From an uncultured bacterium (GTDB lineage Bacteria > Patescibacteriota > Minisyncoccia > UBA6257 > GWB1-50-10), in the NCBI GenBank assembly GCA_963768835.1, contig CAVYJB010000002.1, positions 136,230-200,229 of the forward strand: a stretch of DNA of 64,000 bases, given 5' to 3'. The position numbers were made by a program, and so were the translations under genes. The notes under the pieces were generated by a model, which searched no databases, was not told where the DNA came from, and worked only from the letters and a program-made list of their open reading frames with translations. This document shows positions 9,644-35,880 of this stretch, piece by piece; position 1 is the stretch's first letter; the number at the start of each line of letters is the position of its first letter.

Positions 9644-10270
9644 TTATTTCTTGGTAATCTGTGTGACAAACCCTCGTCCGCCTTGCCGCGGCGGCATCGT
9701 GACGGTGAAAGGAATCTTGATCATCTTTAGGAACTCACCGAGTTTCATGAGCCCCCACTCTTTGTTTCCTTTCTCCCGTCCCCGGAGGCGGAGATCAATC
9801 TCTACCTTGTGGCCTTGCCCCAGGAACCGCTCCGCACGGTCTGCCTTGACCTGGAGGTCATTGAGAGCCGCTCGGGGGGTGATTCGAACCTGTTTTAATT
9901 CCTTTACCCGCTGGGCTAACCGCTGCTTCTTAAACTCCTTCTCTTTTTGATACCGGAACTTGTCAAAACTGATAATGCGGGCGACGGGCGGCTTAGCACC
10001 CGGGGCGACCTCGATAAGGTCCAAGCCCCGTTCCACGGCCATCCGGAGCGCTTCCTCCTTCCGCACCACGCCTAGGTTCTCCCCCTCGGGGCCGATCACG
10101 CGAAGTTCCGCGGCGGCTATTTGGTTGTTGATGCGGTACGGTTGGATAGGGGAATGATAACAGCCGACCCACGGTATGTAAAGACCTGCGTTTAAAAGAA
10201 AGAGCCTGTCCGAAATTTTCGGGCAGGCCCTTGAGGTGTTCGCCGGTGTTAATCGCCGTGCGCACATCAT
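9644..10270 (-). CDS. infC: translation initiation factor IF-3 (true start probably non-AUG near 10177)
   Basis: …RINNQIAAAELRVIGPEGENLGVV…FDKFRYQKEK… IF-3 N- and C-domains; first in-frame ATG (10270) gives atypical Cys/Trp-rich 30-aa extension; an in-frame ATA at 10175-10177 would give a canonical ~178-aa IF-3. Confidence 0.8.
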   Translation of the reverse strand: MMCARRLTPANTSRACPKISDRLFLLNAGLYIPWVGCYHSPIQPYRINNQIAAAELRVIGPEGENLGVVRKEEALRMAVERGLDLIEVAPGAKPPVARIISFDKFRYQKEKEFKKQRLAQRVKELKQVRITPRAALNDLQVKADRAERFLGQGHKVEIDLRLRGREKGNKEWGLMKLGEFLKMIKIPFTVTMPPRQGGRGFVTQITKK

Positions 10271-10276
10271 TCCTTT

Positions 10277-12103
10277 CTAATAGATTATATTTCCGTTTTT
10301 ATCCACAACGACAACAACTACCGTCCAAGCTGCCCGCACGACTCCGCTGCGGTACGCCCGCGCTGTAAGCACCGTGGTCCGCGCGAAAAGGTCCGAGATG
10401 CCAGACGACTGTCCTTGAAGCGAAACGTCCGTCTCCGCACCGTTCTTCGAAGGCAATCCCTCGATTGTCACGCGGTCGGCGTTCCGCGATCCCCACGTGA
10501 GGTCGCTGGACCACAGAATACTTCGCACGCCCATCGCTTGATTCCCACCACCCGAGCCCTCGTAGACCACCGGGTTCGGATCGGCTTTAAGCCAAACCGA
10601 AACGGTAAGCGTATCGATGACCGGAGGCGGTGTCACGGGCGGACGGACATAAACGAATCTAGAATCCGTTGCCTGTGGCATAGCGGGGAATCCGTTCACG
10701 CGGTACAGGACTTCGTTTTGACCCACCGTGAAGAGCCGCATCGAGACCGGTCCTTGAAGAACCGAAGGTCCGAAGTAACTCAGGTCCGCCGATGTTCCGA
10801 CGCCTGACACGTCCACCTCGAAGAGCTCACCCCAATTCACCGTATCCGGAGCGCTCAAGATATGAGCCTCGGTGTTCGGGAATGGAGCGCTTTCTGTGAT
10901 GAAGTACCAGACGGGAGACCAATCTCCAAATCCTGCCTGGTTCTTGCCCCGAGCCCGCCAGTAATATACGGTGCCATTCTTAAGAATAGCGCCGTTCTGG
11001 AGGGTTGATGCCACCGAAAGTGTAGTTCCTCCTACGCTGTCCCGTTCGAACACAATAGCCGAGAAATCGGCTTTCGTGCTGACCTGGATCATCGAGGAAA
11101 TGGCGTTCGGAGTGAAGTTCCAGGCTAATGTTGGCGCGAGAGGCATACTAGGCGCGCCATTCGCGGGATAGATAAGCGTGTAAGCCGCTGGTGGTTGCTG
11201 TGTAATTGCTGGTGCCGTCGTAAAGGTCCATTGTTCGGACCATGGGCCCGTAACGCCGGAACTCGTAACACCCTGCACCCGCCATGACCACTGCTTATCA
11301 TATCCTGCCGTAAACTGGAACGTATTAGTCGTGATGCCGAAGACCTGAGGACTAGCTAGACCCGTTTTGGCATCCAAGATCTGCAGGTTATAGGTCGCCG
11401 AGTTCGGTTCCAAATCCCAAAGAAGATTAACGCTTATACCGAGGCCGTTCATACCATTTGTCGGGGCTCGGAGCACTAGTGCGCCGGGCGCCGGTTTGGA
11501 TCCTCGGACGTAGAATGTGATCTGGCGCACGATAGGTATCGTCGGAGCTCCATATCCTGTCACAACGACGGTCTCGGTATTCGGACCGATTGTTACCGCG
11601 AAGGTACTGTTTGGAGCCACTGTCCCTATTTTATTACAGACCACGAGCGTCGCGTTGGTGCTGTCAGTGATGTAGACCGAACCAGGATTCACGGTGTCTC
11701 CGTGGATGTCCTGGTCGCTCGTAAGTTTCATTGCTAGCGGTGTCGGTGGTCCTAGCGGAGCATTCTGTAGATACACAGTCACGGGCGGCGTCGGAAATCC
11801 CGCTTGCACCCTTGCCTCTGCATAAGAAGGGAGATATCCCATCGAATCCACTCGACAGATATAAGTTCCCTCGGTTTGCGGGGCGTAAACCGCCGGAGTC
11901 GTTCCCCGGAACACGGTGATACCAGCCACTGTAAGGAGCGTTGCATTTGCTCCCAGTGGATTTGAAATTACGAAGATCGTATCAAGCGTTGCCTGCTGTT
12001 CGGGTGGCGCAGTCGGCGAGAGGGGCAAGTCCTTCTTGGACATGCACCCCGCGAGAAACGCCAGGATCGCCAGGAAGGCGAACAACCATTTGCTTTTCAT
12101 CAC
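10277..12103 (-). CDS. surface lipoprotein with fibronectin-III-like repeats
   Basis: Signal peptide + lipobox LAFLAGC; repeated …W.WRV.GVTSSGV.GPWSE.WTFTT / …YYWRARGKN.AGFGDWSPVWYF.T FN3-like modules. Confidence 0.6.
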   Translation of the reverse strand: MMKSKWLFAFLAILAFLAGCMSKKDLPLSPTAPPEQQATLDTIFVISNPLGANATLLTVAGITVFRGTTPAVYAPQTEGTYICRVDSMGYLPSYAEARVQAGFPTPPVTVYLQNAPLGPPTPLAMKLTSDQDIHGDTVNPGSVYITDSTNATLVVCNKIGTVAPNSTFAVTIGPNTETVVVTGYGAPTIPIVRQITFYVRGSKPAPGALVLRAPTNGMNGLGISVNLLWDLEPNSATYNLQILDAKTGLASPQVFGITTNTFQFTAGYDKQWSWRVQGVTSSGVTGPWSEQWTFTTAPAITQQPPAAYTLIYPANGAPSMPLAPTLAWNFTPNAISSMIQVSTKADFSAIVFERDSVGGTTLSVASTLQNGAILKNGTVYYWRARGKNQAGFGDWSPVWYFITESAPFPNTEAHILSAPDTVNWGELFEVDVSGVGTSADLSYFGPSVLQGPVSMRLFTVGQNEVLYRVNGFPAMPQATDSRFVYVRPPVTPPPVIDTLTVSVWLKADPNPVVYEGSGGGNQAMGVRSILWSSDLTWGSRNADRVTIEGLPSKNGAETDVSLQGQSSGISDLFARTTVLTARAYRSGVVRAAWTVVVVVVDKNGNIIY

Positions 12104-18079: not shown

Positions 18080-18364
18080 CGAACCTCTCCTTTCGTGCCG
18101 TTCTGCGGCACATTAGGCGAGCTGTTCTTCAGCTCGAGGTTTGCCATACGACGCAGATTGGTGCTGTTCATAGCAGCCCGTTTTCTCGCGCCCATTCCCT
18201 GATTTTCAAGGAACACTTATATTATATTCTATTTTGTTATAAAAGTCAATAGCGATTGGTTTCGGTTCAACTCCACCCGCCTATTAGGAATTTTGACTCC
18301 GAAAAAGGGAAAACAACGCTCAAAAAGCGTTGATTTTCCTAGCGTCCCAACATGCATAGAACTG

Positions 18365-18673
18365 TGGAGATGGCCGGAGTTGAACCGGCGTCCAAAGCGC
18401 TGCCCATGAACCTTCTACATGCTTAGATCTCTTGCGAGAACGAATTTTGGTTCTATTTTTAGTTCAAGCGTCCGAACCAACTCCGCTTAAACGATCCTAC
18501 GATATGACACCAGGCATCCTCTAGTAGGCACCGAGGGCTGATGCTACGCTACGCGTATGCGAGCGCAGGAACTGCAGTTTTGTTGGCAGTTATCGGTTGT
18601 GACCGGATTTACGAGACGATCAGCTCGGCGTGCCAACCCATTGGCGGGCGCTCTGTCGAAGCCCAACATCCCC
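18365..18673 (-). ncRNA. ssrA: tmRNA (ssrA)
   Basis: Minus strand 5' GGGGATGTTGGGCTTCGACAGAGC… and 3' …GGACGCCGGTTCAACTCCGGCCATCTCCA form tRNA-like acceptor/T-arm; internal frame GCC AAC AAA ACT GCA GTT CCT GCG CTC GCA TAC GCG TAG (tag ANKTAVPALAYA, inferred); directly downstream of smpB. Confidence 0.8.
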
Positions 18674-18692: not shown

Positions 18693-19133
18693 CTATAAAC
18701 TGCTGGCTCTCCGGATTTCGCGCTCAGTCTCGCGTTTCTTAATAACTTCCCGCTTGTCGCTTTTTTTCCTCCCCTTCCCGAGTCCGAGCTCTAACTTCAC
18801 GAATCCGCGGTGAGTATACGCCTTGAGAGGTACGAGCGTCAAACCAGACTGGATCTTGCCTATAAGATAAGAGATCTCAGTCCTTTTTAGGAGAAGCTTT
18901 CGCGTCCGAGTTGCATCATAGTCGGACGGTATATTTTTGGGCTGGAATGATTGAATATTCGCCCCAATGAGGTAGAGTTCGCCCCCCCGGATAATGACAT
19001 GGCTCCCCGCGATATCGAGCCGGCCCATCTTTGCCGACCTCGTCTCATGGCCGGTAAGCACAAGACCGGCATCGTATTTCTCTACGACATCGTAGTCAAA
19101 TGTGGCACGCCTATTAAGCGAAAGTTCTGTCAC
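18693..19133 (-). CDS. smpB: SsrA-binding protein SmpB
   Basis: …LVLTGHETRSAKMGRLDIAGSHVIIRGGELYLIGANI… canonical SmpB; adjacent to tmRNA. Confidence 0.9.
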   Translation of the reverse strand: MTELSLNRRATFDYDVVEKYDAGLVLTGHETRSAKMGRLDIAGSHVIIRGGELYLIGANIQSFQPKNIPSDYDATRTRKLLLKRTEISYLIGKIQSGLTLVPLKAYTHRGFVKLELGLGKGRKKSDKREVIKKRETEREIRRASSL

Positions 19134-19183: not shown

Positions 19184-20770
19184 ATGCGAGATCGAATCAG
19201 CGCGGTACTCAAAAAACTAGTCCCAGAGGACTTGGTTATCGCGGTCTCGGCGCCTGAAAAAGCGGGACAGGGCGATTATGCGACGAACGTTGCCTTTGAG
19301 CTTGGGAAGCTGCGCGGGAAACCGCCGATGGCAGTCGCCCAAGAACTCGCTGCGGGAGCATTCGAGGCAGCGCCCGACTTTCTCCTCAGGGTAGAAGCTT
19401 CGAAGCCCGGCTTCGTGAACTTCTGGATCAAGCCAGAAGTGTTGAAAGCCGAGCTTGGAAACATTCTCAAGGCGGGCAAGATGTACGGGGTCTCACAAAC
19501 CGCGGTGCCTCAAAAAGTGCAGGTAGAATTCATCTCTGCTAACCCCACGGGGCCTCTCACGCTCGCGAACGGAAGAGGGGGGTTTTTGGGGGACGTCATC
19601 GCGAATGTTCTTGAAGCGGTCGGCCATGTGGTGGAACGTGAATATTACGTGAACGATACCGGGAACCAGATCGCGACGCTCGGGAAATCCCTTCTCGCTG
19701 CGCGGGGGTTCATCCCGGATGAGGAGACGTTCTATAAAGGAAACTACATCAAGGTTTGGGCGGACGCGCACGCAAAAATTGTTGAAAAACACCAGGGCGA
19801 TCCTCAGGAGCTGGGAAGTGTCGCTGCGAAAGATTTTCTCGAGGCCATCAAGGGCGTTGTGGAGGGTAAGGCGGACATTCTCTTCAGTCGCTATACATCT
19901 GAGCGGGATGATATTCGCGCAAAAAGATACCCCGAGAAAGCCCTTGCACTTTTCCGGTCTAAGAAAGTGGTGTACGAGAAAGACGGCGCCACGTGGCTCC
20001 GTACGACAGAGTTCGGTGACGACAAGGACCGAGTGCTCCTCACGAGCGCGGGCGGACCCACGTACCTATTGGCGGATGCTGGGCACTACCTTGAGACGGT
20101 GGAGCGTGGGTTCGACCGGAAAGTGAACATTTTAGGGCCCGACCACTATGGCTACGTAGCGCGTATCCAGGCGGCTGCGAAGCTGGTAGGGCTTAAGGAT
20201 TCCACGGTTCTCATCACCCAGGCGGTGCGCCTAATGGAAGGCAATACCGAGGTCAAGATGTCGAAACGACGGGGGACGTTCGTGACTTTTGACGAGCTCG
20301 TGGAGGAAACAGGCCCCGACGCCGCGCGGTTCTTTTTTCTCATGATAGCGCCAGAATCGCACCTCGATTTCGATCTTGCGCTTGCCAAGGAGCGTTCGGT
20401 GAAGAATCCAGTCTACTACGTGCAGTATGGGTTTGTACGAGCCACAAATATCATTGAAAAGGCAGGCGGTCCCTCTGCCGGACACCCCGACCTCTCAAGC
20501 CTATCGACACCGGAAGATTTGAGGCTCATCCGGAAGATGGTGCAGTTCCCAGAGGTCCTTCAAGACATCGCGGCCGACTATCGCGTGCACCGCCTCACGC
20601 GATACGCGACGGAGCTTGCGAGCGCTTTCCATGACTGGTACGAGAAGGAACGGGTGGTAGGGGAGGAGCACTCTATAGCGCAAGCTCGCCTCGCGCTGGT
20701 TTCTGGAACCAAAGTCGTTTTTGGGAACCTTCTCCGTACGCTCGGTATCCACGCCCCGGAGAAGATGTAG
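19184..20770 (+). CDS. argS: arginine--tRNA ligase
   Basis: Class I aaRS; ISANPTGPLTLANGRGG HIGH-region, DALR anticodon-binding C-terminus, typical ArgRS N-terminal Add-1 domain. Confidence 0.9.
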   Translation: MRDRISAVLKKLVPEDLVIAVSAPEKAGQGDYATNVAFELGKLRGKPPMAVAQELAAGAFEAAPDFLLRVEASKPGFVNFWIKPEVLKAELGNILKAGKMYGVSQTAVPQKVQVEFISANPTGPLTLANGRGGFLGDVIANVLEAVGHVVEREYYVNDTGNQIATLGKSLLAARGFIPDEETFYKGNYIKVWADAHAKIVEKHQGDPQELGSVAAKDFLEAIKGVVEGKADILFSRYTSERDDIRAKRYPEKALALFRSKKVVYEKDGATWLRTTEFGDDKDRVLLTSAGGPTYLLADAGHYLETVERGFDRKVNILGPDHYGYVARIQAAAKLVGLKDSTVLITQAVRLMEGNTEVKMSKRRGTFVTFDELVEETGPDAARFFFLMIAPESHLDFDLALAKERSVKNPVYYVQYGFVRATNIIEKAGGPSAGHPDLSSLSTPEDLRLIRKMVQFPEVLQDIAADYRVHRLTRYATELASAFHDWYEKERVVGEEHSIAQARLALVSGTKVVFGNLLRTLGIHAPEKM

Positions 20771-20819: not shown

Positions 20820-21170
20820 TCAGTAGAAATCCCACGGATTTACCTCGATTGGTTCCACCCGATCCGATTGGACCGTGCGAGTGATGCCGTGGGTGACCCG
20901 ACCCGTGGATATTTCTCGGGCATCAAACGTTACCACGGCTGTATATGGTTGGCTGGCGGACAACCATGACTGGTCGAGCACTCTTGCTTGGAACTCGAAT
21001 GTATATGAGTCTCCGGGATTTTCGCGGCCGATCTCCGTTCCGTTCGCATCGCACGCGATATCCAATGTATCGTGGGTGATGAAATTCGCCTTGAATGTCG
21101 CTTCACGATCGCATCCAGCGAGCAGCAGCAGGGCTAAGCCAGCAAGTGGCAGCAACAACGAGTGTCGCAT
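20820..21170 (-). CDS. small lipoprotein, hypothetical
   Basis: Signal peptide with lipobox LLLAGC. Confidence 0.5.
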   Translation of the reverse strand: MRHSLLLPLAGLALLLLAGCDREATFKANFITHDTLDIACDANGTEIGRENPGDSYTFEFQARVLDQSWLSASQPYTAVVTFDAREISTGRVTHGITRTVQSDRVEPIEVNPWDFY

Positions 21171-21314: not shown

Positions 21315-24300
21315 ATGCTCAAGAAATTCGAGGAATTCTCGCTTCCTAAGCTAGAACAGAAGGTTTTGGAGTTCTGGGATACCAACCAGATATTCCAAAA
21401 ATCCCTTAAAAATCGGGCGAAACGGAAGAAGTTTGTTTTCTATGAAGGGCCCCCGACGGCGAACGGCCGGCCGGGCATCCACCATATCCTCGCGCGGGCC
21501 TTTAAAGATGTCATTCCGCGGTACCGAACAATGGCTGGCGCCTACGTTCCGCGCCGAGGAGGTTGGGACACCCATGGGCTTCCCGTGGAACTTGAGGTAG
21601 AAAAGAAACTGGGGCTCACCTCAAAACGGGACATCGAGCGTTATGGCATCGAAAAGTTTAATGCGAAGTGTCGTGAATCGGTCTGGCAGTACCGCACCGA
21701 ATGGGAGAGCCTGACGCGGCGGATCGGGTTCTGGCTCGATATGCGGGATCCTTATATCACGTACGAGAATTCCTACGTCGAATCGCTCTGGGCTATTCTC
21801 AAGGAGATTGCGAAAAAGAAACTTCTCTATAAAGGCCACAAGGTGGTACCGTGGTGTCCGCGCTGCGGTACCACGCTTTCGTCCCATGAGCTCGCGCTCG
21901 GATATCGCGAGGTGGAGGAAACTTCAGTCTATCTTAAATTCAGGTTGAAGAAAGGGCAGAAGTTTGGTGGGGGGTTCACCACTGACGGTCGAACCTTCAT
22001 TCTTTCCTGGACCACGACCCCCTGGACCCTTCCCGGGAATGTTGCCTTAGCCATTGCGCCAAATGTAGAATACTCGCTCGTAGCGGTGGGAGACGGAGCC
22101 ACGCGGGAGACCTACATCCTCGCGACGCCGCGTCTTAGCATCCTTCCTGAGCCGCGCGAAATCCAGGGCACGGTCAAGGGGCGGGATCTCGTGGGTCTAG
22201 AATACGAGCCGCTTTTCGATATCAAGCCGCTCAATACCAAAACCTCCTATAAGGTATACCCCGCGAAGTTCGTGACAACTGTGGACGGTACGGGTGTGGT
22301 GCACACCGCCGTGATGTACGGAGAGGATGACTACAATCTCGGAAAAGAGGTTGGATTGCCGCAGGTTCATACCGTGGACCTCCAAGGACGCTTTCTCAAA
22401 GACGTTCCAGGGCTTGCGGGGCTTTACGCCAAAGATCATGGGACGGAAGGGAAAATACTCAAGGTTCTCCAGACAAACGGGAACCTTCTCCGGACCGAGC
22501 CCTATAAGCACGATTATCCTTTCTGTTGGCGGTGTTCTACGCCACTTCTCTACTACGCCCGGGATTCCTGGTTCATCGCCATGAGCCGGCTCCGGCCGGC
22601 GCTCCTGCGGGAAAATAAGAAGGTGAAGTGGGTTCCGGAATCCGTGAGAGACGGTCGGTTTGGAGAATGGCTTCGGGAAGTAAAGGATTGGGCTATTTCC
22701 CGCGAACGTTATTGGGGGACGCCGCTCCCTATCTGGCAATGCGAGAAGTGCGACCGGATTCATGTGGTAGGAAGCTACCAAGAACTTTCCGACCTTCAGG
22801 GCGGCCCAGCGAACCGCTACATCCTCATGCGTCATGGGGAGTCCATTTCGAATCTGAAAAATGAGATTAACGCACGGGCGAAAGACAAGAACGAGTTTGC
22901 GCTGACCTTACGCGGGCGGGTGGAAGCCGAGAAAGCCGCGAAGGCACTAAAGAAAGAAAAGATCGATCTCATTGTGGCGTCGGATTTCCGGAGAACCCGA
23001 GAGACGGCGGAGATCGTCGCGAAAGCCGTGGGCGCGTCGAAGGTTCTCCTCGACAAGCGGTTCCGCGAGATCAACACCGGCATTTTTGAGGGATGCCATG
23101 CGAAGGAGTATCGAGAATTCTTTTCTAGTTATCTTGAGGTGTTTACCAAGCGCCCACCGAAAGGGGAGGCGCTTCGGGACCTCGTCGCACGTTCTTTTGA
23201 GGGGCTTCAGGAGCTTGAAAAAAGGCACAAAGGGAAAACCATCCTCATCGTAAGCCACGAATATCCCATTTGGGCTCTCGAAACCGCGATGCGGGGGTGG
23301 AGCATGGAACAATCCATACGGGAGAAAGAAGCTCGCGGCGAGGACTTCATCGCGACTGCCGGTTGGCGCCCCGTTCCTGCACTCCGTCTCCCGCGAGGAG
23401 CTGAGCATTTTGCCGATCCCCACAAACCTTTCGTGGATAGCGTTGCATTTCCCTGTTCCTGTGGCGGGACGATGCGTCGGATTCCAGAAGTGGTAGATGT
23501 CTGGTTTGATTCAGGGGCCATGCCATTCGCCCAAAACCATTGGCCTTTCCAAAAGACCGCCATCGATTTCCCTGCAGATTATATCTCCGAGGCGGTGGAC
23601 CAGACACGCGGGTGGTTTTACACGCTTCTTGCCGAGGCCGTGGCGCTTGGGAAACCCGCACCTTTCCGGAACGTGATCTGTCTCGGCCTTATTATGGACA
23701 AGAACGGCCAGAAAATGTCGAAGTCCAAGGGTAATATCGTGGATCCGTGGGCGATGATAGAGAAGTACGGAGCCGACACGGTACGCTGGCATCTCTTTAC
23801 AGTGAACCCGCCCGGCGAGCCTAAAAAGTTTGACGAAGCTGACCTTGGAAAGACTCTCCGGCAGTTCATCCTGATGCTCTACAACTCCTTCGTCTTTTAC
23901 GAAACCTATGCGGTGAAACCCGGGAATCCCAGTCTTCCCCCGAAAACGAAGAACATTCTGGACCGATGGATTCTTGCCCGGCTTGTGGATACCACGGTTG
24001 CGGCGACCCGAGGCCTAGCATCCTATGACATCGGAGGGGCCGCTCGTGTACTCGAGCTTTTTGCCCAAGATCTTTCGCGCTGGTACATTCGCCGTTCGCG
24101 CCGCCGGCTCCAGAAACCCGAAAGCGCAGCGGACCAAGAGGCAGTTTCTCGGACCCTTGGATACGCACTCTTGAACCTCGCGGGTCTCCTCGCGCCCTTT
24201 ATGCCATTCTTTTCAGAAGCTCTATATCGATCAATTGTGAAGGAAGGAGGACGCCACACGCTGCCAGAATCTGTGCATCTCACCGACTGGCCGCGGGTGC

Positions 24301-24860
24301 CGAAAACCTTCGCAGATCCCAAGCTCCTCAAGGCAATGGAGGAGGTGCGGACCTTTGCGGGCCTTGGTCTCGCAAAACGGGCGGAGGTGGGCATTAAGGT
24401 TCGCCAGCCCCTCGGGATGTTCCGCATCAAAACCAAAGATCCCTACCTCCTTCATTCCAAGGAACTCCTGGATCTTCTGCGCGATGAGGTAAACGTCAAA
24501 GACGCGCATGTCGACAATGACATCCGTCGCCCCGTGGAGCTCGATATACGACTGAGCCAATCCCTCAAGGAGGAGGGGTATGTGCGGGAACTCGTTCGGA
24601 TGGTGCAGGATCTCCGGCAAGATGGGAAACTCGAGCCTAAGGACCGCGTGGTGGTACGCCTGGAAATCCCCAAAGAACTCCTCCGAGTTATCGAAACCCA
24701 CGAGGCTTTTCTCAAGACAGAAGTAAATGCCCGCTCCGTGGAGTATCGGCGCTCGCCTAAGTTCACAATCGAGCTCGAGACAAAACTTGACGCCTCGCCC
24801 CTCGCAAAGGATAAAGGTGAGGGATGGCCGGTCTGGATAGGTCTTCAGAAAGTTTCTTGA
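21315..24860 (+). CDS. ileS: isoleucine--tRNA ligase (type 2) with inserted histidine-phosphatase (PGAM-like) domain
   Basis: PPTANGRPGIHH (HIGH), KMSKSKGN, CP1 editing and Zn-ribbon CSCGGTMRR; residues encoded ~22797-23400 form LMRHGESISN…RRTRETAEI…IVSHEYPIWAL histidine phosphatase signature inserted between …IHVVGSYQELSDL and …DPHKPFVDSVAF. Confidence 0.85.
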   Translation: MLKKFEEFSLPKLEQKVLEFWDTNQIFQKSLKNRAKRKKFVFYEGPPTANGRPGIHHILARAFKDVIPRYRTMAGAYVPRRGGWDTHGLPVELEVEKKLGLTSKRDIERYGIEKFNAKCRESVWQYRTEWESLTRRIGFWLDMRDPYITYENSYVESLWAILKEIAKKKLLYKGHKVVPWCPRCGTTLSSHELALGYREVEETSVYLKFRLKKGQKFGGGFTTDGRTFILSWTTTPWTLPGNVALAIAPNVEYSLVAVGDGATRETYILATPRLSILPEPREIQGTVKGRDLVGLEYEPLFDIKPLNTKTSYKVYPAKFVTTVDGTGVVHTAVMYGEDDYNLGKEVGLPQVHTVDLQGRFLKDVPGLAGLYAKDHGTEGKILKVLQTNGNLLRTEPYKHDYPFCWRCSTPLLYYARDSWFIAMSRLRPALLRENKKVKWVPESVRDGRFGEWLREVKDWAISRERYWGTPLPIWQCEKCDRIHVVGSYQELSDLQGGPANRYILMRHGESISNLKNEINARAKDKNEFALTLRGRVEAEKAAKALKKEKIDLIVASDFRRTRETAEIVAKAVGASKVLLDKRFREINTGIFEGCHAKEYREFFSSYLEVFTKRPPKGEALRDLVARSFEGLQELEKRHKGKTILIVSHEYPIWALETAMRGWSMEQSIREKEARGEDFIATAGWRPVPALRLPRGAEHFADPHKPFVDSVAFPCSCGGTMRRIPEVVDVWFDSGAMPFAQNHWPFQKTAIDFPADYISEAVDQTRGWFYTLLAEAVALGKPAPFRNVICLGLIMDKNGQKMSKSKGNIVDPWAMIEKYGADTVRWHLFTVNPPGEPKKFDEADLGKTLRQFILMLYNSFVFYETYAVKPGNPSLPPKTKNILDRWILARLVDTTVAATRGLASYDIGGAARVLELFAQDLSRWYIRRSRRRLQKPESAADQEAVSRTLGYALLNLAGLLAPFMPFFSEALYRSIVKEGGRHTLPESVHLTDWPRVPKTFADPKLLKAMEEVRTFAGLGLAKRAEVGIKVRQPLGMFRIKTKDPYLLHSKELLDLLRDEVNVKDAHVDNDIRRPVELDIRLSQSLKEEGYVRELVRMVQDLRQDGKLEPKDRVVVRLEIPKELLRVIETHEAFLKTEVNARSVEYRRSPKFTIELETKLDASPLAKDKGEGWPVWIGLQKVS

Positions 24861-26179: not shown

Positions 26180-27202
26180 CTACGCGAGGCCAATGCGCTT
26201 CTTCACCTCCTGGAGCTTTTTCGATGCCACCGCGTCCGCCTTTCGGTTGCCGGCCGCAAAGACCCTCTGGACCGCTGCGGGTTTCTGCGCGAACGCATGT
26301 TTCTTTTTCTGGAATGGCGCGAGGAACTTCACTGTCGCCTCCGCGAGATCTCTCTTGAACTCCCCATAGCCCCTTCCTTGATATTCTTTTTCCAGTGCTC
26401 CAACGGTTTTTCCGCTCACGCCGGCGTAGAGCATCAGGAGGTTTCCGATGGCGGGCTTGCCCTCAATATCCGCCCGTATCTCCTTGCCGGAGTCCGTGAC
26501 CGCTCTCATGATTTTCTTCCGAATAATCTCCGCCGCATCATCAAGGAAGAGGCAGCCCTCGGGTCGAGACTTCGACATTTTCTTCGTAGGTTCGTCTAGG
26601 CTCATTACGCGGGAGGTCTCCGTGAGAAGAGGTTCTGGTTCAATGAATACCTTGCCGAATTTCTTGTCGAATTTTCGGGCAAGTTCGCGTGTAAGTTCTA
26701 GGTGTTGGAGCTGGTCGTCTCCTACTGGCACCACTTTTGCATCGTAGAGAAGGATGTCTGCCGCCATAAGGACGGGGTAGGAGAAGAGACCAACATTTGC
26801 GCTCTCGGCTCCAGATTCCGATTTCTCCTTGAACTGCGTCATCCGGCGAAGCTCACCCATGGGAGTCAGAGTGTTTAAAATCCAAGCTAGGTCGGTATGC
26901 GCAGCAATTGCCGACTGTACGAAGAGCACCGACTTGGTTGAGCTAAGCCCTGCCGCGAGGAAATCCGCTTCCAGGGCGAAAATCTGTTTTCCCTTTTCGG
27001 CGGGCGCATAACTTTCCGTGAGGGAATGGTAGTCGGCGATGAAGAAATAGCACTGGTATTTCCCAGAATTCTGGAGCTTCACGAAATTTCCCAAAGCGCC
27101 CAAGTAATTTCCGATGTGAAGCTTTCCGCTCGGCTGGATGCCCGAGACGAGAACGGGTTTCATATCATCCAGTATAGTATTTTTTAAATCGTCTGGAAAC
27201 AA
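26180..27202 (-). CDS. trpS: tryptophan--tRNA ligase
   Basis: …PSGKLHIGNYLGAL… HIGH and KMSKS (KKMSKS) motifs, ~340 aa. Confidence 0.9.
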   Translation of the reverse strand: MFPDDLKNTILDDMKPVLVSGIQPSGKLHIGNYLGALGNFVKLQNSGKYQCYFFIADYHSLTESYAPAEKGKQIFALEADFLAAGLSSTKSVLFVQSAIAAHTDLAWILNTLTPMGELRRMTQFKEKSESGAESANVGLFSYPVLMAADILLYDAKVVPVGDDQLQHLELTRELARKFDKKFGKVFIEPEPLLTETSRVMSLDEPTKKMSKSRPEGCLFLDDAAEIIRKKIMRAVTDSGKEIRADIEGKPAIGNLLMLYAGVSGKTVGALEKEYQGRGYGEFKRDLAEATVKFLAPFQKKKHAFAQKPAAVQRVFAAGNRKADAVASKKLQEVKKRIGLA

Positions 27203-27233: not shown

Positions 27234-28991
27234 CTAGATCTCTATAATCACCGGGAGCACCATTGGCCGACGCTGTGTCTTGTTGTACAGGTATTGGCCG
27301 ATTTGGTCGCGGATAAGGCCCTTCACGTAGTCCGCGTCAGGAGACTGGTGATGTGGTATGCGCCCTAGGATGCCACGGATTTTCCGACGTATCTCGTCCA
27401 GGAGTCCTTGGTTTTCCTTGAGGTAGATGAATCCACGCGAGATAATATCGGGATTCTTCAGCACCTTCCCAGAGGCCCGATCCACCGTCGTGATGATGAC
27501 GAGCATGCCCTCTTGAGCCAGCGCCAGTCGGTCGCGGAGGACCACTTCGCCTACGTCGCCCACACCCAGACCATCTACCATCACGTAGTAAGCGGGTACT
27601 TGCTCATCCGTCACTCGTGCGGAGTCCTTCCGGAGCTCCACTACGAGGCCGTTGTCGGCGAGAAGCGTGCGCTCAGGCGGGAGCCCGAGAACCTCCTGCG
27701 CATGCTTGGTGTTCCGCTGCCGCATGAAGTAGTAGCCGTGGATGGGGAGAAAGAAGCGAGGGTGTATAAGCTTCATCACGGTCTTTAGTTCCTCCTGCGG
27801 GGCGTGACCAGAGGAGTGGATGTCGAGCATCTTGTAGTGGTAGATGGTCGCACCCTGCCGCGCAAGGTTATCCTTCAGGTTCTGGATGCTTCGCTCGTTC
27901 CCGGGGATGATCGAGGAAGAAAGGATAATGGTATCCGTGGGCTTTACCTTGATGTGTTTATGCTCGCCGTTTGCGACGCGCATAAGGGTTGCCTTCGCCT
28001 CACCCTGTGCGCCCGTGCAAAGAAGCATCAGCTTTTCGTCGCGGTACTTATGGATGTCCTCCAGCGGGATAATAGTGCCCTTCTCGTGCTTCATGTAGCC
28101 CAGCCGTTCGGCAATCTGGACATTGTTCTTCATTGAGAAGCCGGAAAGTGCCACCTTTCGGCCGAGTTTCTCAGCTATCTTAATGATCTCGTTCAGACGG
28201 TCGAGGAGTGAAGCGAAGGTGCCAACAATAATCCGGCCCTTGGCGGTACGGAAGAGCTTTTCAAGCTCCGCTTCCACAACACGTTCCGAGAGCGCATATC
28301 CTGGCGTTTCGGCGCCCGTCGAATCGAGCATGAGCGTGTGGATACCCTGCTTTCCGACGTTCTCCCACACCTCGAGGCCTCGCGGCTTTCCGTCGTGCCC
28401 GTAGTCGAACTTGAATTCGCCCGGGTGCACGACCTTCCCGATGGGCGTCGTGATAACCATCCCGAAGCCGTCCGGAATGTTGTGGATGACGTCAAAGAGC
28501 TCCACGGAGAAATGCTCCGAGATTTGGACTCGGTCCCCGCCCTTCACGATCTGGAAAATGGGCTTAGGGGAATTCGGAAAATCTTCCTGGCGTCGAAGGA
28601 CGATCTCTTTCGTGAGACGCGTGGTGTAGATCGGCGGGTTCCCGAGCTTCCCCAGGAGGTAGGGGATTGCGCCGATGTGGTCGTAGTGGCCGTGGGTGAT
28701 GAAGATCCCCTTGATGTTCTGCTTCTTGGCCTCGAGGTAAGCGACATTCGGGATAATGTAGTCGATGCCCGGCGTCTCTTCCTCGGGGAACTGGAGACCG
28801 ACATCGATGATGAAGATCTCGTTCTTGTACTCGAAGAACATCATGTTGCGTCCGATCTCCTCGAGACCGCCCAACGCAACCCAGCGCACCACGGGCTCGC
28901 CCGTGTCGCGCGTCTCGACCTTTACTGCTGCCGGTTTTAGGGGCTGCCGGCGCCCCATCTTTGACCTTGCGGTCATGGTTCGTGGAACCAT
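27234..28991 (-). CDS. rnj: ribonuclease J (beta-CASP metallo-beta-lactamase)
   Basis: ITHGHYDHIGAIPYLL MBL motif, beta-CASP region, ~585 aa RNase J architecture. Confidence 0.85.
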   Translation of the reverse strand: MVPRTMTARSKMGRRQPLKPAAVKVETRDTGEPVVRWVALGGLEEIGRNMMFFEYKNEIFIIDVGLQFPEEETPGIDYIIPNVAYLEAKKQNIKGIFITHGHYDHIGAIPYLLGKLGNPPIYTTRLTKEIVLRRQEDFPNSPKPIFQIVKGGDRVQISEHFSVELFDVIHNIPDGFGMVITTPIGKVVHPGEFKFDYGHDGKPRGLEVWENVGKQGIHTLMLDSTGAETPGYALSERVVEAELEKLFRTAKGRIIVGTFASLLDRLNEIIKIAEKLGRKVALSGFSMKNNVQIAERLGYMKHEKGTIIPLEDIHKYRDEKLMLLCTGAQGEAKATLMRVANGEHKHIKVKPTDTIILSSSIIPGNERSIQNLKDNLARQGATIYHYKMLDIHSSGHAPQEELKTVMKLIHPRFFLPIHGYYFMRQRNTKHAQEVLGLPPERTLLADNGLVVELRKDSARVTDEQVPAYYVMVDGLGVGDVGEVVLRDRLALAQEGMLVIITTVDRASGKVLKNPDIISRGFIYLKENQGLLDEIRRKIRGILGRIPHHQSPDADYVKGLIRDQIGQYLYNKTQRRPMVLPVIIEI

Positions 28992-29352: not shown

Positions 29353-30357
29353 CTATTTTCTTCTCAGAAGAACCTTCATTTCCTCAATAACTTTCGTTTC
29401 AAGCGGATTCATCCCCAAACCTTGGGCTAAATAGAGAGCCGTCCAGTGGGCGAGGAGAAATCCACTCCATAACTTGATCTCTGGGCTGGATCCCTTGAGC
29501 GGCACTCCCAGCACCCGAACTCCACGGGCAGAGAGTGTGCGTTTTAAGATAGTTGTTTTCTTGCGGATTTCGGCGCGCCCGCTCGCGTCCTCCAGAAATA
29601 CCGCTACGAATTCCTTGCCGCTGCGCTCGAACCCGGCGATCTCATTATGGCTCATCTCGGGTATGACGTTCGCGAACGCAGGAGTCTTTGCGGTCTCGTT
29701 CAAGCTGATCTTCCAGATATAGCCCAAGGCTTGATGGGAAGCGCTGGTGTAGACGAGAGGAACCCGTCCCTTGAGGCTTCGCGCAAGCCGCTGCCCCGCC
29801 ACCTCAAAAACCCCTGTTCCAGGGAGATGCGGCTGTTTTACAGGCCGAATCTCCGGGAAACGAATCCGAAGGAGAGCGATGCAACTGCCGTAAGTATACC
29901 CTAACGCCTTCCTTGGTGTCAAGCCCCCTCCGGGGAAGCGCACGTAAGCAATCCCTGCCTGTTCAGCGAGACGCGCAAGCTCACCTCCTGACGTCACAGC
30001 CGCCACCATAGATCCTTTTTGTTTCACGACCTCTCGGAATCCTGAAAGCACCTCCTCGGTGTTGCCAGAAAAAGAAACGAAGAGGTGGAGAGGGTTTCGA
30101 AAATGGGTGGAAGGAAGCCCGTAGTTTTTCCAGACGACCACTGGGACGGGGATGCGAAGCGTGGCCGCAAGTTCCTTAATAACCGAGCCGGCGAGGCCCG
30201 AGCCGCCCATGCCGAAGATAATAATGCCGTCGTGCTTCCCACCCCCTTTTAGACGATTCGCGTTCCGGACCAAGAACCCTTCTCGCGGGAACTGGGCAGA
30301 GAAGTTCCGAAGGGCGCGCCGATACACCTCAAATGCATAAGAATTTCCGGGTTTCAT
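29353..30357 (-). CDS. bifunctional phosphoglucose/phosphomannose isomerase (SIS domain, archaeal-type PGI/PMI)
   Basis: …IIIFGMGGSGLAG… SIS motif and overall ~330-aa PGI/PMI family similarity. Confidence 0.65.
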   Translation of the reverse strand: MKPGNSYAFEVYRRALRNFSAQFPREGFLVRNANRLKGGGKHDGIIIFGMGGSGLAGSVIKELAATLRIPVPVVVWKNYGLPSTHFRNPLHLFVSFSGNTEEVLSGFREVVKQKGSMVAAVTSGGELARLAEQAGIAYVRFPGGGLTPRKALGYTYGSCIALLRIRFPEIRPVKQPHLPGTGVFEVAGQRLARSLKGRVPLVYTSASHQALGYIWKISLNETAKTPAFANVIPEMSHNEIAGFERSGKEFVAVFLEDASGRAEIRKKTTILKRTLSARGVRVLGVPLKGSSPEIKLWSGFLLAHWTALYLAQGLGMNPLETKVIEEMKVLLRRK

Positions 30358-32674: not shown

Positions 32675-34222
32675 CTAATGAAGCTGGGGAAGGAGCGATT
32701 CCCCTGTCATTTCCGGGGGTTTGGGGAGTCCCAAGAGCTCAAGAATTGTCGGAGCCACATCTGCCAGAAGGCCGATGGTTTCAAGACGTCGTGCTCTAGG
32801 AACGGGGCGCGCAAACTCCTTCCCTATCAAATAGAAAGGCACGGGGCTGGGGTCGTGTTTGGTTTGCGGCTCGCCAGTCTGGCGATCAATGAGGCATTCT
32901 GCGTTCCCGTGGTCCGAGGTCACCAAAAGAACATGACCGCCGTCCAGCACGACTCGCATCAACCGTCCCAATTCTCTGTCCACGGTCTGTACGGCTCGCA
33001 CCGTTGCTTCGAAATTTCCGGTGTGCGCGATCATATCCGCATTCGCGTAGTTGAGAAGGATAAAATCGACTCCTCCCTCTTGTAGGGAGGCCAGGGCGCG
33101 GTCGGTGATGGGAGTTGCCATCATTTCGGGGTGGTCCGCATGTGAGGCCTCCACGCGGGAGGGGACAAGGATTCGGTACTCATTTGGGAACGGTTCTTCC
33201 CGGAGACCATTAAAGAAGTAGGTTACGTGGGCATATTTTTCAGTTTCGGCAACCCGGAGCTGCACCCTTCCTTTATCGGCGAGGACCTGCCCCAACGGGT
33301 TCGGTATCGTCTCACGCGAGAAGATTTCAAATCCGGGGAGCTCGCGGTTATATTCCGTGAAGGTTGCGAGGAAGAGATTGGGGATAGGGGAGAGCGGAAA
33401 GGATTTAAAAGCGGGGTCGAGGAAAGCTGAAGATATCTGGCGCATGCGATCTTCCCTGAAATTGAAGAAGACAACCGCATCGTTCGCTTGGATAGGATGA
33501 GGCTCGCCTGGGATGGTGGGCTCAACATACTCATCGTTATAGCCGCGATCGTAGGTAGCCCGAAGGGCTTCTGCGAGTGACCGATGATTTCCTTCTCCGG
33601 CCACGAGAAGTCGGTAAGCTCTCGCGGTACGGTCCCAATTCCGATCCCGGTCCATCGCATAGTACCGTCCAACAAGATCTGCGATTGTCCCCACCCCCTT
33701 CTCGTCTAGGAGCTTTTCAATGCGTGCTGTAAGCATGGCCGCCGAGTGCGGGTCGCTGTCGCGGCCATCCGTGAAGAGATGAAGGTAGACCGCCTGGGTC
33801 CCCTCGCGTTTTGCCATCTCGAGGAGGGCCACAATGTGGTCCATAGAGGCATGCACCGTCGCGCCGGTGAGAAGCCCCACTAGATGCACGGCGCCTCCGC
33901 TCTGCTTAGCGTGGTCGAACGCCGCCTTTAGGCGAGGGAGAGTGAAAAATGAGCCGTCACGGATAGCGCCCTCAATTCTTTGAAAATGCTGGAAGAGAAT
34001 ACGGCCAGCACCAATAGTAAGATGTCCTACTTCGCTGTTTCCCTCTTCGTTCCAGGGGAGACCAATGGAGGTCCCAGATGCCTGCAGGGCTCCTGCGGGG
34101 AAATTCGCCTCGATAGATGGGATGATCTGTAAACCTGCGCCATAAATAGGGTTCGAGGCGTCGTCCGGGCCGATCCCCCAACCATCCATGATCACGAGTA
34201 CACAAGTGCGTTTCATCTGCAC
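32675..34222 (-). CDS. gpmI: 2,3-bisphosphoglycerate-independent phosphoglycerate mutase
   Basis: N-terminal …VLVIMDGWGIGP… and metalloenzyme domain; ~515 aa. Confidence 0.9.
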   Translation of the reverse strand: MQMKRTCVLVIMDGWGIGPDDASNPIYGAGLQIIPSIEANFPAGALQASGTSIGLPWNEEGNSEVGHLTIGAGRILFQHFQRIEGAIRDGSFFTLPRLKAAFDHAKQSGGAVHLVGLLTGATVHASMDHIVALLEMAKREGTQAVYLHLFTDGRDSDPHSAAMLTARIEKLLDEKGVGTIADLVGRYYAMDRDRNWDRTARAYRLLVAGEGNHRSLAEALRATYDRGYNDEYVEPTIPGEPHPIQANDAVVFFNFREDRMRQISSAFLDPAFKSFPLSPIPNLFLATFTEYNRELPGFEIFSRETIPNPLGQVLADKGRVQLRVAETEKYAHVTYFFNGLREEPFPNEYRILVPSRVEASHADHPEMMATPITDRALASLQEGGVDFILLNYANADMIAHTGNFEATVRAVQTVDRELGRLMRVVLDGGHVLLVTSDHGNAECLIDRQTGEPQTKHDPSPVPFYLIGKEFARPVPRARRLETIGLLADVAPTILELLGLPKPPEMTGESLLPQLH

Positions 34223-34356: not shown

Positions 34357-35880
34357 ATGGGAAACACCACCTGGTTAGCAGGCGGTCTGGCACTCGTGGG
34401 TCTTGTGGCGGGGTATTACCTCCGCCTCTGGCTCGCCAAGCGATCTCAGACCTCGCTAGAGAGAAAGACCGAGAAGGAACTCGAGAACGCTAACGCACAG
34501 TCGAAGGAAATTGTTCTGGCGGCGAAGGACAAGGCCGCATCGATCCTCGTCGACGCACAGAAAGAGGCTCGCGAGCGCGAGCAGGAGCTTCGGCGTCTGG
34601 AGGAACGTCTTCTCAAACGGGAAGACTCCTTGGAACGCGATCGCGGGCATCTAGAAACCGAGACCGCCCGGGTTCGCAAGGAAGCGGACGCCGTCGTCGA
34701 ATATGAACAGCGCGTGAAAACGCTCGAGGAGAAGGCTGTCAAGGAGATCGAGGGAGTTGCCGGGCTCTCCCGAGAAGAAGCTAAAACAAAGCTTTTCCAG
34801 GAGATTGAGGATTCTTCCCACAAGGAGCTCGCAGAAACTCTTATACGGCTTGAACGTGAACGCCGAGATGAAATAGAGAAGAAGGGCCTCAACATTATGA
34901 CTTCCGCTATCCAGCGATACGCACGCGACTACGTGGCGGATGTGACGACAAGCGTAGTACCCATTCCGAACGACGAACTCAAGGGGAAGATCATCGGGCG
35001 CGAGGGCCGGAACGTCCGCACCTTCGAACGTCTGACGGGTGTCGAGGTCATTGTGGACGAGACTCCCGAAGCTATCGTTCTGTCTTCTTTCGATCCATTG
35101 CGTCGCGAACTCGCGAAGATTGCCCTCGAGAAACTTATCAAGGACGGACGTATCCAGCCCGCAAAGATTGAGGAGAAGGTGGAAGAAGCCCGGGCTCAGC
35201 TTGATGACCAGATCCGGAAGGTCGGCGAAGAAGCCGCCTATGAGGCCGGAATCCTCGATTTACCTAAGGAAATCAACTATCTTTTGGGACGGCTGAACTA
35301 CCGCACCAGCTATGGGCAGAACGTTCTCCAGCACTCGCTCGAGATGACGTATATCGCGGGGATGATCGCTGCAGAGCTCCATTTGAACGTCGCGGTGACG
35401 AAGAAAGCAGCGCTCCTCCACGATATTGGGAAGGCCATTGACCACGACGTGGAGGGTACGCATGTGGAACTTGGTCGGAAGCTTCTCAAGAAGTACGGCA
35501 TCGAAGAGGTGGTGATCCAGGGGATGGAGGCTCACCACGAAGAATTTCCGTTCGCAACTCCGGAGTCTTATGTTGTTGCGGCAGCCGACGCCATCTCCGC
35601 GGCGCGTCCCGGAGCTCGGCGTGACACCCTAGAAAAGTACCTAAAGCGCCTTGAGAGCATTGAAAAAGTGGTCGGCGAGTTTGAGGGCGTCAAACAAGCC
35701 TATGCGGTTTCGGCGGGGCGGGAGGTGCGTGTTTTTGTGGTGCCTGAAAAGATTGACGATTTCGGGGCACTCGAATTAGCTAAGAAAATCGCGGGTAAAA
35801 TACAGTCTGACGTGGAATATCCCGGTGAGATCAAGGTTACCGTTATAAGGGAAACAAAGGCGGTAGAGTTCGCCCGTTAG
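34357..35880 (+). CDS. rny: ribonuclease Y
   Basis: N-terminal TM, coiled coil, KH domain (GKIIGREGRNVRTFERLTGV), HD domain (LLHDIGKA). Confidence 0.9.
   Translation: MGNTTWLAGGLALVGLVAGYYLRLWLAKRSQTSLERKTEKELENANAQSKEIVLAAKDKAASILVDAQKEAREREQELRRLEERLLKREDSLERDRGHLETETARVRKEADAVVEYEQRVKTLEEKAVKEIEGVAGLSREEAKTKLFQEIEDSSHKELAETLIRLERERRDEIEKKGLNIMTSAIQRYARDYVADVTTSVVPIPNDELKGKIIGREGRNVRTFERLTGVEVIVDETPEAIVLSSFDPLRRELAKIALEKLIKDGRIQPAKIEEKVEEARAQLDDQIRKVGEEAAYEAGILDLPKEINYLLGRLNYRTSYGQNVLQHSLEMTYIAGMIAAELHLNVAVTKKAALLHDIGKAIDHDVEGTHVELGRKLLKKYGIEEVVIQGMEAHHEEFPFATPESYVVAAADAISAARPGARRDTLEKYLKRLESIEKVVGEFEGVKQAYAVSAGREVRVFVVPEKIDDFGALELAKKIAGKIQSDVEYPGEIKVTVIRETKAVEFAR

Follow-up and report, generated by a model that had tools for sequence, protein, structure and literature searches.

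We analyzed a 64-kb stretch of DNA (64,000 nucleotides, contig CAVYJB010000002.1) from an uncultured member of the Patescibacteria, or Candidate Phyla Radiation (CPR). We will call this whole stretch the window, and coordinates are counted from its first nucleotide. The gene under study, ileS-HP, encodes an isoleucyl-tRNA synthetase (IleRS) with a histidine phosphatase (HP) domain nested inside it. Both parts are from well-known families; the combination is conserved, and it is undescribed in the literature that we searched. The features of the gene are listed here. (1ILE is a structure of the IleRS from Thermus thermophilus; CP1 and CP3 are connective peptides of the synthetase; and counts out of 120 refer to the closest homologs, which are 53-67% identical.)

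21315..24860, + strand: ileS-HP, a 1181-aa type-2 IleRS with a nested histidine phosphatase (from the open reading frame, TIGR00392, Pfam, and an AlphaFold2 model)
21474..21485, + strand: class-I signature, in the non-canonical form GIHH, aa 54-57 (aligned to HVGH of 1ILE)
22011..22028, + strand: CP1 editing motif TTTPWT, aa 233-238 (kept in 117-120 of 120 homologs)
22740..22751, + strand: CEKC, with C476 and C479, the N-terminal half of CP3's zinc knuckle (aligned to the CxxC in the T. thermophilus enzyme)
22794..23411, + strand: inserted module, aa 494-699, which is a full histidine phosphatase domain with short linkers (from the alignment to 1ILE)
22821..23312, + strand: Pfam match to His_Phos_1 (PF00300), aa 503-666 (E = 3.3e-34, 118.7 bits, cut-off 21.7)
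22830..22835, + strand: R506 and H507 of the RHG motif, the phosphate-binding arginine and the nucleophilic histidine (invariant in 76 aligned homologs)
22992..22994, + strand: R560, the second phosphate-binding arginine (invariant)
23166..23168, + strand: E618, predicted to act as the general acid/base, as in other branch-1 histidine phosphatases (invariant in 76 homologs)
23256..23258, + strand: H648, the second active-site histidine (invariant)
23454..23462, + strand: CSC, with C714 and C716, the C-terminal half of CP3's zinc knuckle (aligned to the CxC of 1ILE)
23712..23726, + strand: KMSKS motif, aa 800-804 (kept in 119-120 of 120 homologs)

The host is a type-2 isoleucyl-tRNA synthetase

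The 1181-aa protein is encoded by a single, uninterrupted open reading frame. The whole protein matches the NCBIfam model for IleRS (TIGR00392, ileS) with 855.9 bits (the cut-off is 621.4 bits). The models for ValRS, LeuRS, and MetRS give far lower scores, which are under their own cut-offs. In Pfam, the match to tRNA-synt_1 (E = 1.7e-120) is in two halves, one on either side of His_Phos_1. Anticodon_1 (aa 883-1033) and DUF5915 (aa 1060-1148) are at the C-terminal end, which is the organization of type-2 enzymes. The protein is homologous over its full length to the type-2 IleRS with known structures (1ILE, at 848 bits, and the IleRS2 from P. megaterium, 8C8U-W), and it shares their domain order, both zinc sites, the CP1 motifs, KMSKS, and the C-terminal domains. 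Its CP1 domain aligns to that of 1ILE over the whole length.

The original prediction, which was made from the DNA sequence before this analysis, described the HIGH, KMSKS, CP1, and zinc-ribbon regions as intact. Both zinc sites, KMSKS, and the CP1 editing motifs are indeed retained in 117-120 of the 120 homologs. These include the pair of aspartates in CP1 (D338 and D339, in 117-120) and the zinc-binding cysteines: C476 is kept in all 120, C479 in 118, and the CSC motif in all 120. The HIGH motif, however, is replaced by GIHH, and GxHH is found in 117 of the 120 homologs. The hyper-resistant forms of IleRS2 have this same motif: GXHH is a documented and catalytically competent variant of IleRS2 that is linked to hyper-resistance to mupirocin (Brkic et al.). 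Given how widely GxHH is conserved among the homologs, we predict that the whole CPR clade of IleRS is of the hyper-resistant type.

The predicted structure of the full-length protein from AlphaFold2 (AF2) is confident, with a predicted local distance difference test (pLDDT) score of 89.3 and a predicted template modeling (pTM) score of 0.81; the blocks of the insert score 93-97. The structures that it matches best are those of IleRS2 and of IleRS from eukaryotes. Against structures of type-2 IleRS, the template modeling (TM) scores are 0.77-0.89 if normalized by the target, and at most 0.69 if normalized by the query. Such low query-normalized scores would be expected where roughly 17% of the query lacks an equivalent in all of the solved synthetases. 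The 64-kb window does not contain another ileS. Judging from the sequence, the host is best explained as a functioning IleRS of type 2, with its anticodon-binding and C-terminal domains present.

The insertion lies in the CP3 zinc knuckle

In the alignment to 1ILE, residues 1-492 of our protein correspond to residues 1-477 of 1ILE, and residues 700-1027 correspond to residues 488-821. In between, about 206-207 residues stand in place of a linker of about 10 amino acids (1ILE 477-488), and the IleRS sequence picks up in frame exactly where 1ILE does. All of the other solved IleRS likewise align as two stretches that are broken at the position of the insert. The original prediction was of an extra segment of about 190 amino acids, at 22797-23400, in place of a short linker. 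The alignment to solved structures confirms this insertion, with bounds that are slightly wider (aa 494-699).

The insert was also thought to interrupt the catalytic core, and this is not the case. The two halves of the zinc knuckle, CEKC and CSC, flank it. In the T. thermophilus enzyme, the zinc knuckle belongs to CP3, and the topology of CP3 differs among the enzymes from Thermus, Candida, and S. aureus (PMC7191050). Since CP3 is variable among IleRS, we place the insertion in a peripheral and structurally variable subdomain. No tRNA contact is given for CP3 in the papers that we consulted.

Could an assembly chimera, or an error in gene calling, have joined an IleRS gene to a phosphatase gene? 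The original prediction had raised a chimera as a concern. The GC content is flat over both junctions of the insert. Overall GC and the GC content at third codon positions (GC3) are 0.558 and 0.636 for the insert and 0.550 and 0.630 for the remainder of the gene. We found no direct or inverted repeats bounding the insert. Furthermore, every one of the 120 closest homologs contains both PF00133 and PF00300, and in each the insert is 180 amino acids long or longer; these homologs are from independent assemblies (from NCBI, JGI, ENA, and Logan). The same architecture is found in 15 species representatives from GTDB. Given these observations, the uninterrupted reading frame, and the in-frame return to IleRS sequence at the position expected from 1ILE, an artifact is virtually inconceivable. 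We also considered an insertion like that of a mobile element, which we rejected because there are no bounding repeats and because the codon composition of the insert is like that of the host gene.

The insert is a branch-1 histidine phosphatase

The original prediction noted three motifs of histidine phosphatases, and these are where it placed them: LMRHGESISN at nucleotides 22824-22853, RRTRETAEI at 22989-23015, and IVSHEYPIWAL at 23247-23279. The match of the full-length protein to PF00300 spans positions 2-165 of the 194 positions in the profile, and the insert by itself gives E = 9.3e-36 (123.8 bits). The possibility that RHG and SHE motifs had arisen by chance in a known subdomain of the connective peptides can be set aside, given the strength of the Pfam match and the results from NCBIfam and the fold search.

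With R506, H507, R560, E618, and H648, the insert has the complete set of catalytic residues of a branch-1 histidine phosphatase. In the alignment to PhoE, these five positions coincide with its catalytic residues, E618 being aligned to the catalytic GE. Leaving truncated fragments aside, the catalytic residues are retained in 160 of 162 HP copies, across all of the architectural contexts described below. In particular, R506 and H507 are retained in each non-truncated copy, and E618 is kept in all contexts except for one copy (in cluster P0145). Among the 120 homologs, the mean identity is 45% for the insert and 65% for the IleRS core. That the insert diverges faster than the core and yet keeps its active site is a signature of selection on catalysis.

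The insert is predicted to fold by itself: the AF2 model of the domain alone has a pLDDT of 91.2 and a pTM of 0.90. Using Foldseek, the domain-only model matched GpgP (glucosyl-3-phosphoglycerate phosphatase), PspA (phosphoserine phosphatase), PhoE, and CobC with TM scores of 0.74-0.79 and a probability of 1.00, and it also matched HFP, a phosphatase from the riboflavin pathway, within that range of TM scores. The fold search with the insert returned histidine phosphatases only. By sequence, the closest solved relatives are PhoE (1EBB and 1H2E, at E = 1e-13) and PspA (4IJ5). We conclude from its sequence and its predicted structure that the insert is a genuine, complete, and autonomously folding branch-1 histidine phosphatase domain.

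The insert shares its fold, its size (about 190-210 amino acids), and the Arg-His...Arg...Glu...His pattern with small branch-1 phosphatases of broad specificity (PhoE/YhfR, 1EBB and 1H2E; PspA, 4IJ5; GpgP, Rv2419c, 4PZ9; HFP, 9MMH; and CobC), but it is only 22-27% identical to them. It represents a distinct, CPR-specific subfamily, which is unique in its link to aminoacyl-tRNA synthetases, whether by nesting, by fusion, or by gene adjacency. Its scores are below the cut-offs of the specific phosphatase families in NCBIfam: PspA (NF045917, 76 bits with a cut-off of 350), CobC (TIGR03162, 75.5 vs. 162.9), GpmB (NF002901, 67.6 vs. 261), and SixA (TIGR00249, 31.1 vs. 74.5; E = 1.9e-7). Among the folds of known RNA-end healing phosphatases (HAD-type T4 Pnkp, metallophosphoesterase Pnkp, and 2H phosphoesterases), Pfam gave only a sub-threshold match to HAD (E = 0.007, 17 bits vs. 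26.4) and no match to Metallophos or 2H. Pfam and the fold search did not show any homology of the insert to editing or trans-editing folds (CP1, AlaX/tRNA_SAD, YbaK, or DTD).

The match to SixA brings up the idea of a regulatory or protein phosphatase, which would act on IleRS or on another translation protein (undoing the work of an inhibitory kinase, for instance), or would sense a phosphorylated metabolite so as to tune charging. The superfamily does include protein phosphatases and phospho-histidine phosphatases, and HP has been conserved in its attachment to synthetases. But the score for SixA is far under its cut-off, the closest relatives are small-molecule enzymes, and there is no kinase partner in the neighborhoods that we examined. 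We think that a regulatory role is quite improbable.

The nested phosphatase is widespread in the Patescibacteria

The named homologs among the 120 are Patescibacteria (Jorgensenbacteria, Wolfebacteria, Brennerbacteria, Paceibacterota, and Minisyncoccia). We also compared ileS loci from GTDB species representatives. These are the matches listed from a scan with full-length alignments, so that they are a sample of the taxa. Among the matches listed, 15 of 17 CPR loci have HP at the same site; Yanofskybacteria, Spechtbacterales, Paceibacteria, and Peregrinibacteria are among the labels of these loci. Again among the matches listed, none of the 63 non-CPR type-2 loci have a member of this HP subfamily within 7 kb of ileS. 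Thus the insertion, which the original prediction had proposed to look for in related genomes, recurs widely across the CPR, and the nested HP is the standard architecture of IleRS in a large part of the Patescibacteria rather than a one-off.

Two IleRS from Patescibacteria that are near a lineage with the nested form (P0242) have neither an insert nor an HP gene within 7 kb (loci L026 and L028). Either the HP gene is elsewhere in these genomes, or the partnership is dispensable. Three CPR-type IleRS, two of them with a nested HP, are labeled as Gammaproteobacteria, Saccharibacteria, or Woesearchaeota (L020, L027, and L054); these are probably mis-binned or mislabeled contigs from metagenome-assembled genomes.

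To describe the architectures more broadly, we used a profile of the insert, which had hits at E ≤ 1e-30 in 392 clusters (at the 50% identity level); the architecture classes are from the best 150 of these 392 clusters. The majority class is IleRS with HP in the CP3 zinc-knuckle loop, as in the window, which we will call site A. HP is also found at two other sites within IleRS. Site B is after DVWFDSGAMPFAQ, which is equivalent to aa ~740-752 of the window's protein (clusters P0258, P0164, P0222, and P0145). Site C is before the anticodon-binding domain, equivalent to aa ~866-880 (P0157, P0164, and P0222). In P0183, two tandem copies of HP are found at site A. IleRS with two active-looking HP domains are 1379-1468 amino acids long. 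These multi-copy forms are seen repeatedly: the P0183 cluster is found on nine independent contigs, and P0164 is a cluster of six sequences, including one on a 1.06-Mb contig. In P0258, the zinc-binding cysteines of CP3 have been lost as well. Across the family, the identity between HP domains falls to about 30% while the architecture is kept.

HP domains from this subfamily are also attached to other proteins. ArgRS with a C-terminal HP forms 3 clusters only. Two of these are found in smpB-argS synteny, with recO following in place of ileS (P0192, at 10001-12070 of locus L001, and P0398). One ArgRS-HP cluster is at 49% identity and may be a second independent fusion. TsaC/Sua5 with a C-terminal HP forms 4 clusters. 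More generally, the TsaC/Sua5 proteins of Patescibacteria (P0278-P0394), which are t6A enzymes, are mostly fused to an Ogt-type DNA_binding_1 domain (PF01035). The partners of TsaC in other lineages are TruB, 2H/CPDase phosphoesterases, methylpurine glycosylase, NUDIX, GNAT, or HP. As a hub for fusions, TsaC is unusually promiscuous.

A putative ValRS (P0121, in loci L092 and L093; 411 bits to PRK05729) contains four copies of HP: one is in the CP2 region, and the CP3 site has a tandem array of the other three. We have low confidence in this protein because it is a single cluster from contigs of about 3.9 kb at about 2x coverage, with an in-frame TAA within the fourth copy, at which the open reading frame ends. 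We found no further ValRS-HP, and a scan of metagenomes gave only insert-less relatives of this ValRS.

Finally, there are stand-alone proteins with two tandem HP domains. In two loci (L097 and L098; 2081-3639 and 3805-4890), the gene for such a protein and a 109-aa open reading frame with a fragment of HP are directly upstream of a tRNA-synt_1b synthetase (of the TrpRS/TyrRS type), which adds another independent link between the subfamily and a synthetase. In L099, the double-HP gene has no adjoining synthetase.

A split form of the same pair

Free-standing HP proteins from this subfamily are about 187-196 amino acids long. Wherever the sequence around a free-standing HP was long enough, the free hp gene is 1-10 bp upstream of an ileS gene that lacks the insert (encoding 955-984 amino acids). 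The free hp is mostly also 1-55 bp downstream of argS, which gives the gene order argS-hp-ileS-(x)-recO. We saw this split form in loci L003, L004-6, and L007-9; L002 and L010 also have it, though with less of the surrounding sequence.

The window has the corresponding synteny partner upstream of ileS-HP:

19184..20770, + strand: argS, encoding ArgRS (528 aa; Pfam Arg_tRNA_synt_N, tRNA-synt_1d, and DALR_1)

That is, the window has the same smpB-argS-ileS synteny as the split form, with HP inside ileS, and so do most of the other genomes with the nested form. HP and IleRS are thus a conserved pair, which may be split, nested, or, rarely, moved onto ArgRS (as in L001).

In CPR IleRS without an insert, the loop at site A (13-22 amino acids in L026 and L028) resembles the loop in the outgroup and has no scar, which favors the insert-less state as ancestral. 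Rough neighbor-joining trees of the IleRS bodies and of the HP domains disagree, and they do not resolve the number or the direction of these events.

In the window, the 544-bp spacer between argS and ileS contains a 116-aa open reading frame in the antisense direction (20820-21170, - strand), at the position that the free hp gene has in split-form genomes. Its N-terminus is lipoprotein-like, it has no match in Pfam, and it may be spurious.

Comparison to described proteins

Neither the solved structures nor the described type-2 IleRS have anything like the roughly 206 extra residues from an unrelated enzyme that we find in the CP3 loop. We found no description of a phosphatase nested in CP3 of IleRS in the literature that we searched, and a 2026 survey of 96,219 IleRS sequences does not mention a phosphatase or the Patescibacteria. 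The original prediction, that this architecture had not been described, therefore holds for the papers that we searched, but the architecture itself is not rare: there are hundreds of such sequences in the public databases, where they are labeled only as "isoleucine--tRNA ligase" or "class I tRNA ligase family protein."

Class-I synthetases do have other accessory domains that are nested in loops and leave the Rossmann fold intact, such as CP1, the leucine-specific domain of LeuRS, the ARD2 "INS" of IleRS2, and the family "ileS_w_GNAT" in NCBIfam. Those are synthetase-specific folds or are involved in handling tRNA or amino acids, whereas the guest in the window is a complete and unrelated enzyme that also exists as a free-standing gene. 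There is also a precedent for a branch-1 histidine phosphatase that is fused to a nucleic-acid enzyme. The top NCBIfam match of the insert is to the RNase H / acid phosphatase family (Rv2228c / PRK07238; E = 1.6e-23, 84 bits with a cut-off of 326). In that family, the phosphatase is in a terminal fusion with RNase H instead of being nested in a synthetase.

Proposed function of the nested phosphatase

Our best reading, which we hold with modest confidence, is that ileS-HP encodes a bifunctional protein, in which an autonomous phosphomonoesterase is evolutionarily coupled to IleRS and, in other genomes, to other class-I synthetases. We infer its catalytic activity from the standard mechanism of the superfamily, by which HP would be a self-contained and metal-independent phosphomonoesterase. 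R506, R560, and H648 would hold the phosphate; H507 would attack it to form a phospho-histidine intermediate; and E618 would protonate the leaving group and then activate a water molecule. We propose that the nested form is the counterpart of the separate phosphatase gene that, in sister Patescibacteria, translationally abuts ileS in the argS-hp-ileS operon. The two activities would have been brought together more than once, with HP in several loops, as tandem copies, and now and then on ArgRS, ValRS, or TsaC instead.

Because the link survives when HP is a separate gene or is inserted in different loops, the coupling probably reflects co-expression or proximity, and not precise channeling with the aminoacylation or editing sites. 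As for the substrate, PhoE, PspA, GpgP, HFP from the riboflavin pathway, and CobC are all small-molecule phosphomonoesterases. Since the nearest characterized relatives all act on small metabolites, the substrate is, by analogy, likely to be a soluble phosphomonoester.

Four points weigh against this reading. First, the insert does not reach the cut-off of any equivalog in NCBIfam, so no specific function can be transferred to it. Second, the repeated association with class-I synthetases and with a tRNA-modification enzyme exceeds what would be expected for a generic metabolic phosphatase, which hints at a substrate that is linked to tRNA or to aminoacylation. Third, the AF2 model places the domain at site A rigidly and confidently, which could mean that there is a specific functional geometry. 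Fourth, fusions are promiscuous in the Patescibacteria (TsaC is fused to at least 7 unrelated domains), so part of the coupling may be neutral.

The second and third of these points would suit a role that is linked to tRNA. The original prediction had offered tRNA end repair as a possible role, along with proofreading-related hydrolysis and regulation. HP might take a terminal phosphate (2' or 3') or pyrophosphate off the acceptor end of tRNA, or a phosphate from elsewhere on it. Damaged or toxin-modified tRNA could then be charged again, and the attachment to a class-I synthetase would hand the repaired end straight to aminoacylation. The partners of HP are all tRNA-centered (IleRS, ArgRS, the ValRS fragment, and TsaC), and a double-HP gene is directly upstream of a tRNA-synt_1b synthetase. 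Also, in related CPR proteins, the fusion partner of TsaC can instead be a 2H/CPDase phosphoesterase, an enzyme that opens cyclic phosphates. The predicted rigid placement would fit with such a role, as would the basic character of the window's domain (isoelectric point, or pI, of 9.7). But across the family the pI is heterogeneous (4.9-10.1) and many copies are acidic, so there is no consistent basic signature by pI among the family's copies. None of the nearest relatives by sequence or by fold act on RNA ends. A 2',3'-cyclic phosphate is a diester, and it is not a typical substrate for the phosphomonoesterases of the histidine phosphatase superfamily, which weighs against action on tRNA ends.

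The architectures also argue against any mechanism that needs precise placement near the tRNA's 3' end: HP occurs as a separate gene and at at least three loops, and thus does not have to be held in one set position with respect to that end. Some CPR IleRS lack HP within 7 kb (L026 and L028, among the matches listed), and the adjacency of the genes in argS-hp-ileS can account for the bias towards ArgRS and IleRS by itself. Overall, we consider a tRNA-linked phosphatase to be plausible but unlikely. We are similarly doubtful of a more specific version, in which HP would give the synthetase a third catalytic site, with tRNA or a species linked to aminoacylation as its target, such as a CCA-end phosphate or pyrophosphate left by ribotoxins or toxSAS-type toxins.

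The fourth point, if taken further, would make HP a neutral hitch-hiker: a housekeeping enzyme that was next to ileS by chance and became nested via rearrangements that the streamlined genomes of CPR bacteria tolerate. Fusions are rampant in the Patescibacteria (TsaC with Ogt, TruB, 2H, glycosylase, NUDIX, GNAT, or HP), and the rare ArgRS-HP fusions (3 clusters) could be explained by read-through of genes that are 1 bp apart. CP3 is structurally permissive, as its topology varies among IleRS, and the insert evolves faster than the core. The association is absent within 7 kb in L026 and L028, and the double-HP gene in L099 has no adjoining synthetase. However, it is hard to explain, without selection, how an intact in-frame enzyme came to be at at least three loops of an essential gene, along with tandem copies that are catalytically intact. 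HP is also associated with synthetases that are not neighbors of ileS (ValRS and the tRNA-synt_1b synthetase), and the architecture has been kept over deep divergence (HP identities of down to about 30%). We view neutral hitch-hiking as rather unlikely, slightly more so than a role on tRNA, and we continue to prefer the phosphomonoesterase that is coupled to the synthetase.

Other genes in the window

The following genes near ileS-HP are relevant to glycolysis; they are within 10 kb of it:

29353-30357, - strand: bacterial phosphoglucose isomerase (PGI)
32675-34222, - strand: canonical, cofactor-independent phosphoglycerate mutase (iPGM; iPGM_N at 9e-69 and Metalloenzyme at 7e-63)

These bear on another explanation, which is that the insert is the organism's phosphoglycerate mutase (PGM). 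PGM was reported to be absent from several shallow clades of Parcubacteria (Jaffe et al. 2020, PMC7304191), and the insert has a weak likeness to the cofactor-dependent PGM (dPGM) of archaea (NF038349, 72-77 bits). But this is far from that family's cut-off (225 bits), and the score for TIGR01258 is also too low (37.6 vs. 81.7 bits). The second active-site histidine is followed by SHE rather than by the HGN of mutases, and tandem multi-copy forms would be senseless for a glycolytic enzyme. We consider it highly improbable that the insert is a PGM. For this genome, the canonical iPGM in the window, together with the sub-threshold scores for dPGM, effectively refutes the idea that the insert fills in for a missing PGM.

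Several genes for translation or RNA metabolism cluster near ileS: tmRNA, SmpB, ArgRS, TrpRS, RNase J, and RNase Y. Besides argS, these features are at:

18362-18673, - strand: translation/RNA neighborhood feature
18693-19133, - strand: translation/RNA neighborhood feature
26180-27202, - strand: translation/RNA neighborhood feature
27234-28991, - strand: translation/RNA neighborhood feature
34357-35880, + strand: translation/RNA neighborhood feature

We found no T-box or other Rfam leader upstream of ileS.

Farther away, an open reading frame with a recombinase zinc-ribbon domain (44206-45168, - strand) abuts the gene for tRNA-His (44144-44215), and an open reading frame for an Mrr-type restriction endonuclease (47024-47866) is nearby. 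These may be part of an element that integrated at the tRNA gene.

Implications

Bacterial aminoacyl-tRNA synthetases rarely gain new catalytic domains. The split, nested, multi-site, and multi-copy forms of HP are a natural experiment on how a domain invades essential genes, and on why a phosphatase is kept beside IleRS. Also, hundreds of database entries that are labeled as IleRS conceal a second predicted enzymatic activity. Whether HP is free or nested, and at which site, are potential phylogenetic markers within the Patescibacteria.

To our knowledge, the histidine phosphatase family has never before been linked to RNA ends. If HP acts on tRNA or on a metabolite that is linked to aminoacylation, then it would be a new layer of quality control or repair for translation in organisms with minimal genomes. 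If it acts on the CCA end, then a tRNA healing step would be built into class-I synthetases (IleRS and, sporadically, ValRS, ArgRS, and the neighbors of Trp/TyrRS). And if HP acts on neither tRNA nor such a metabolite, then ileS-HP would be a clean example of domain nesting that is driven by genome streamlining.

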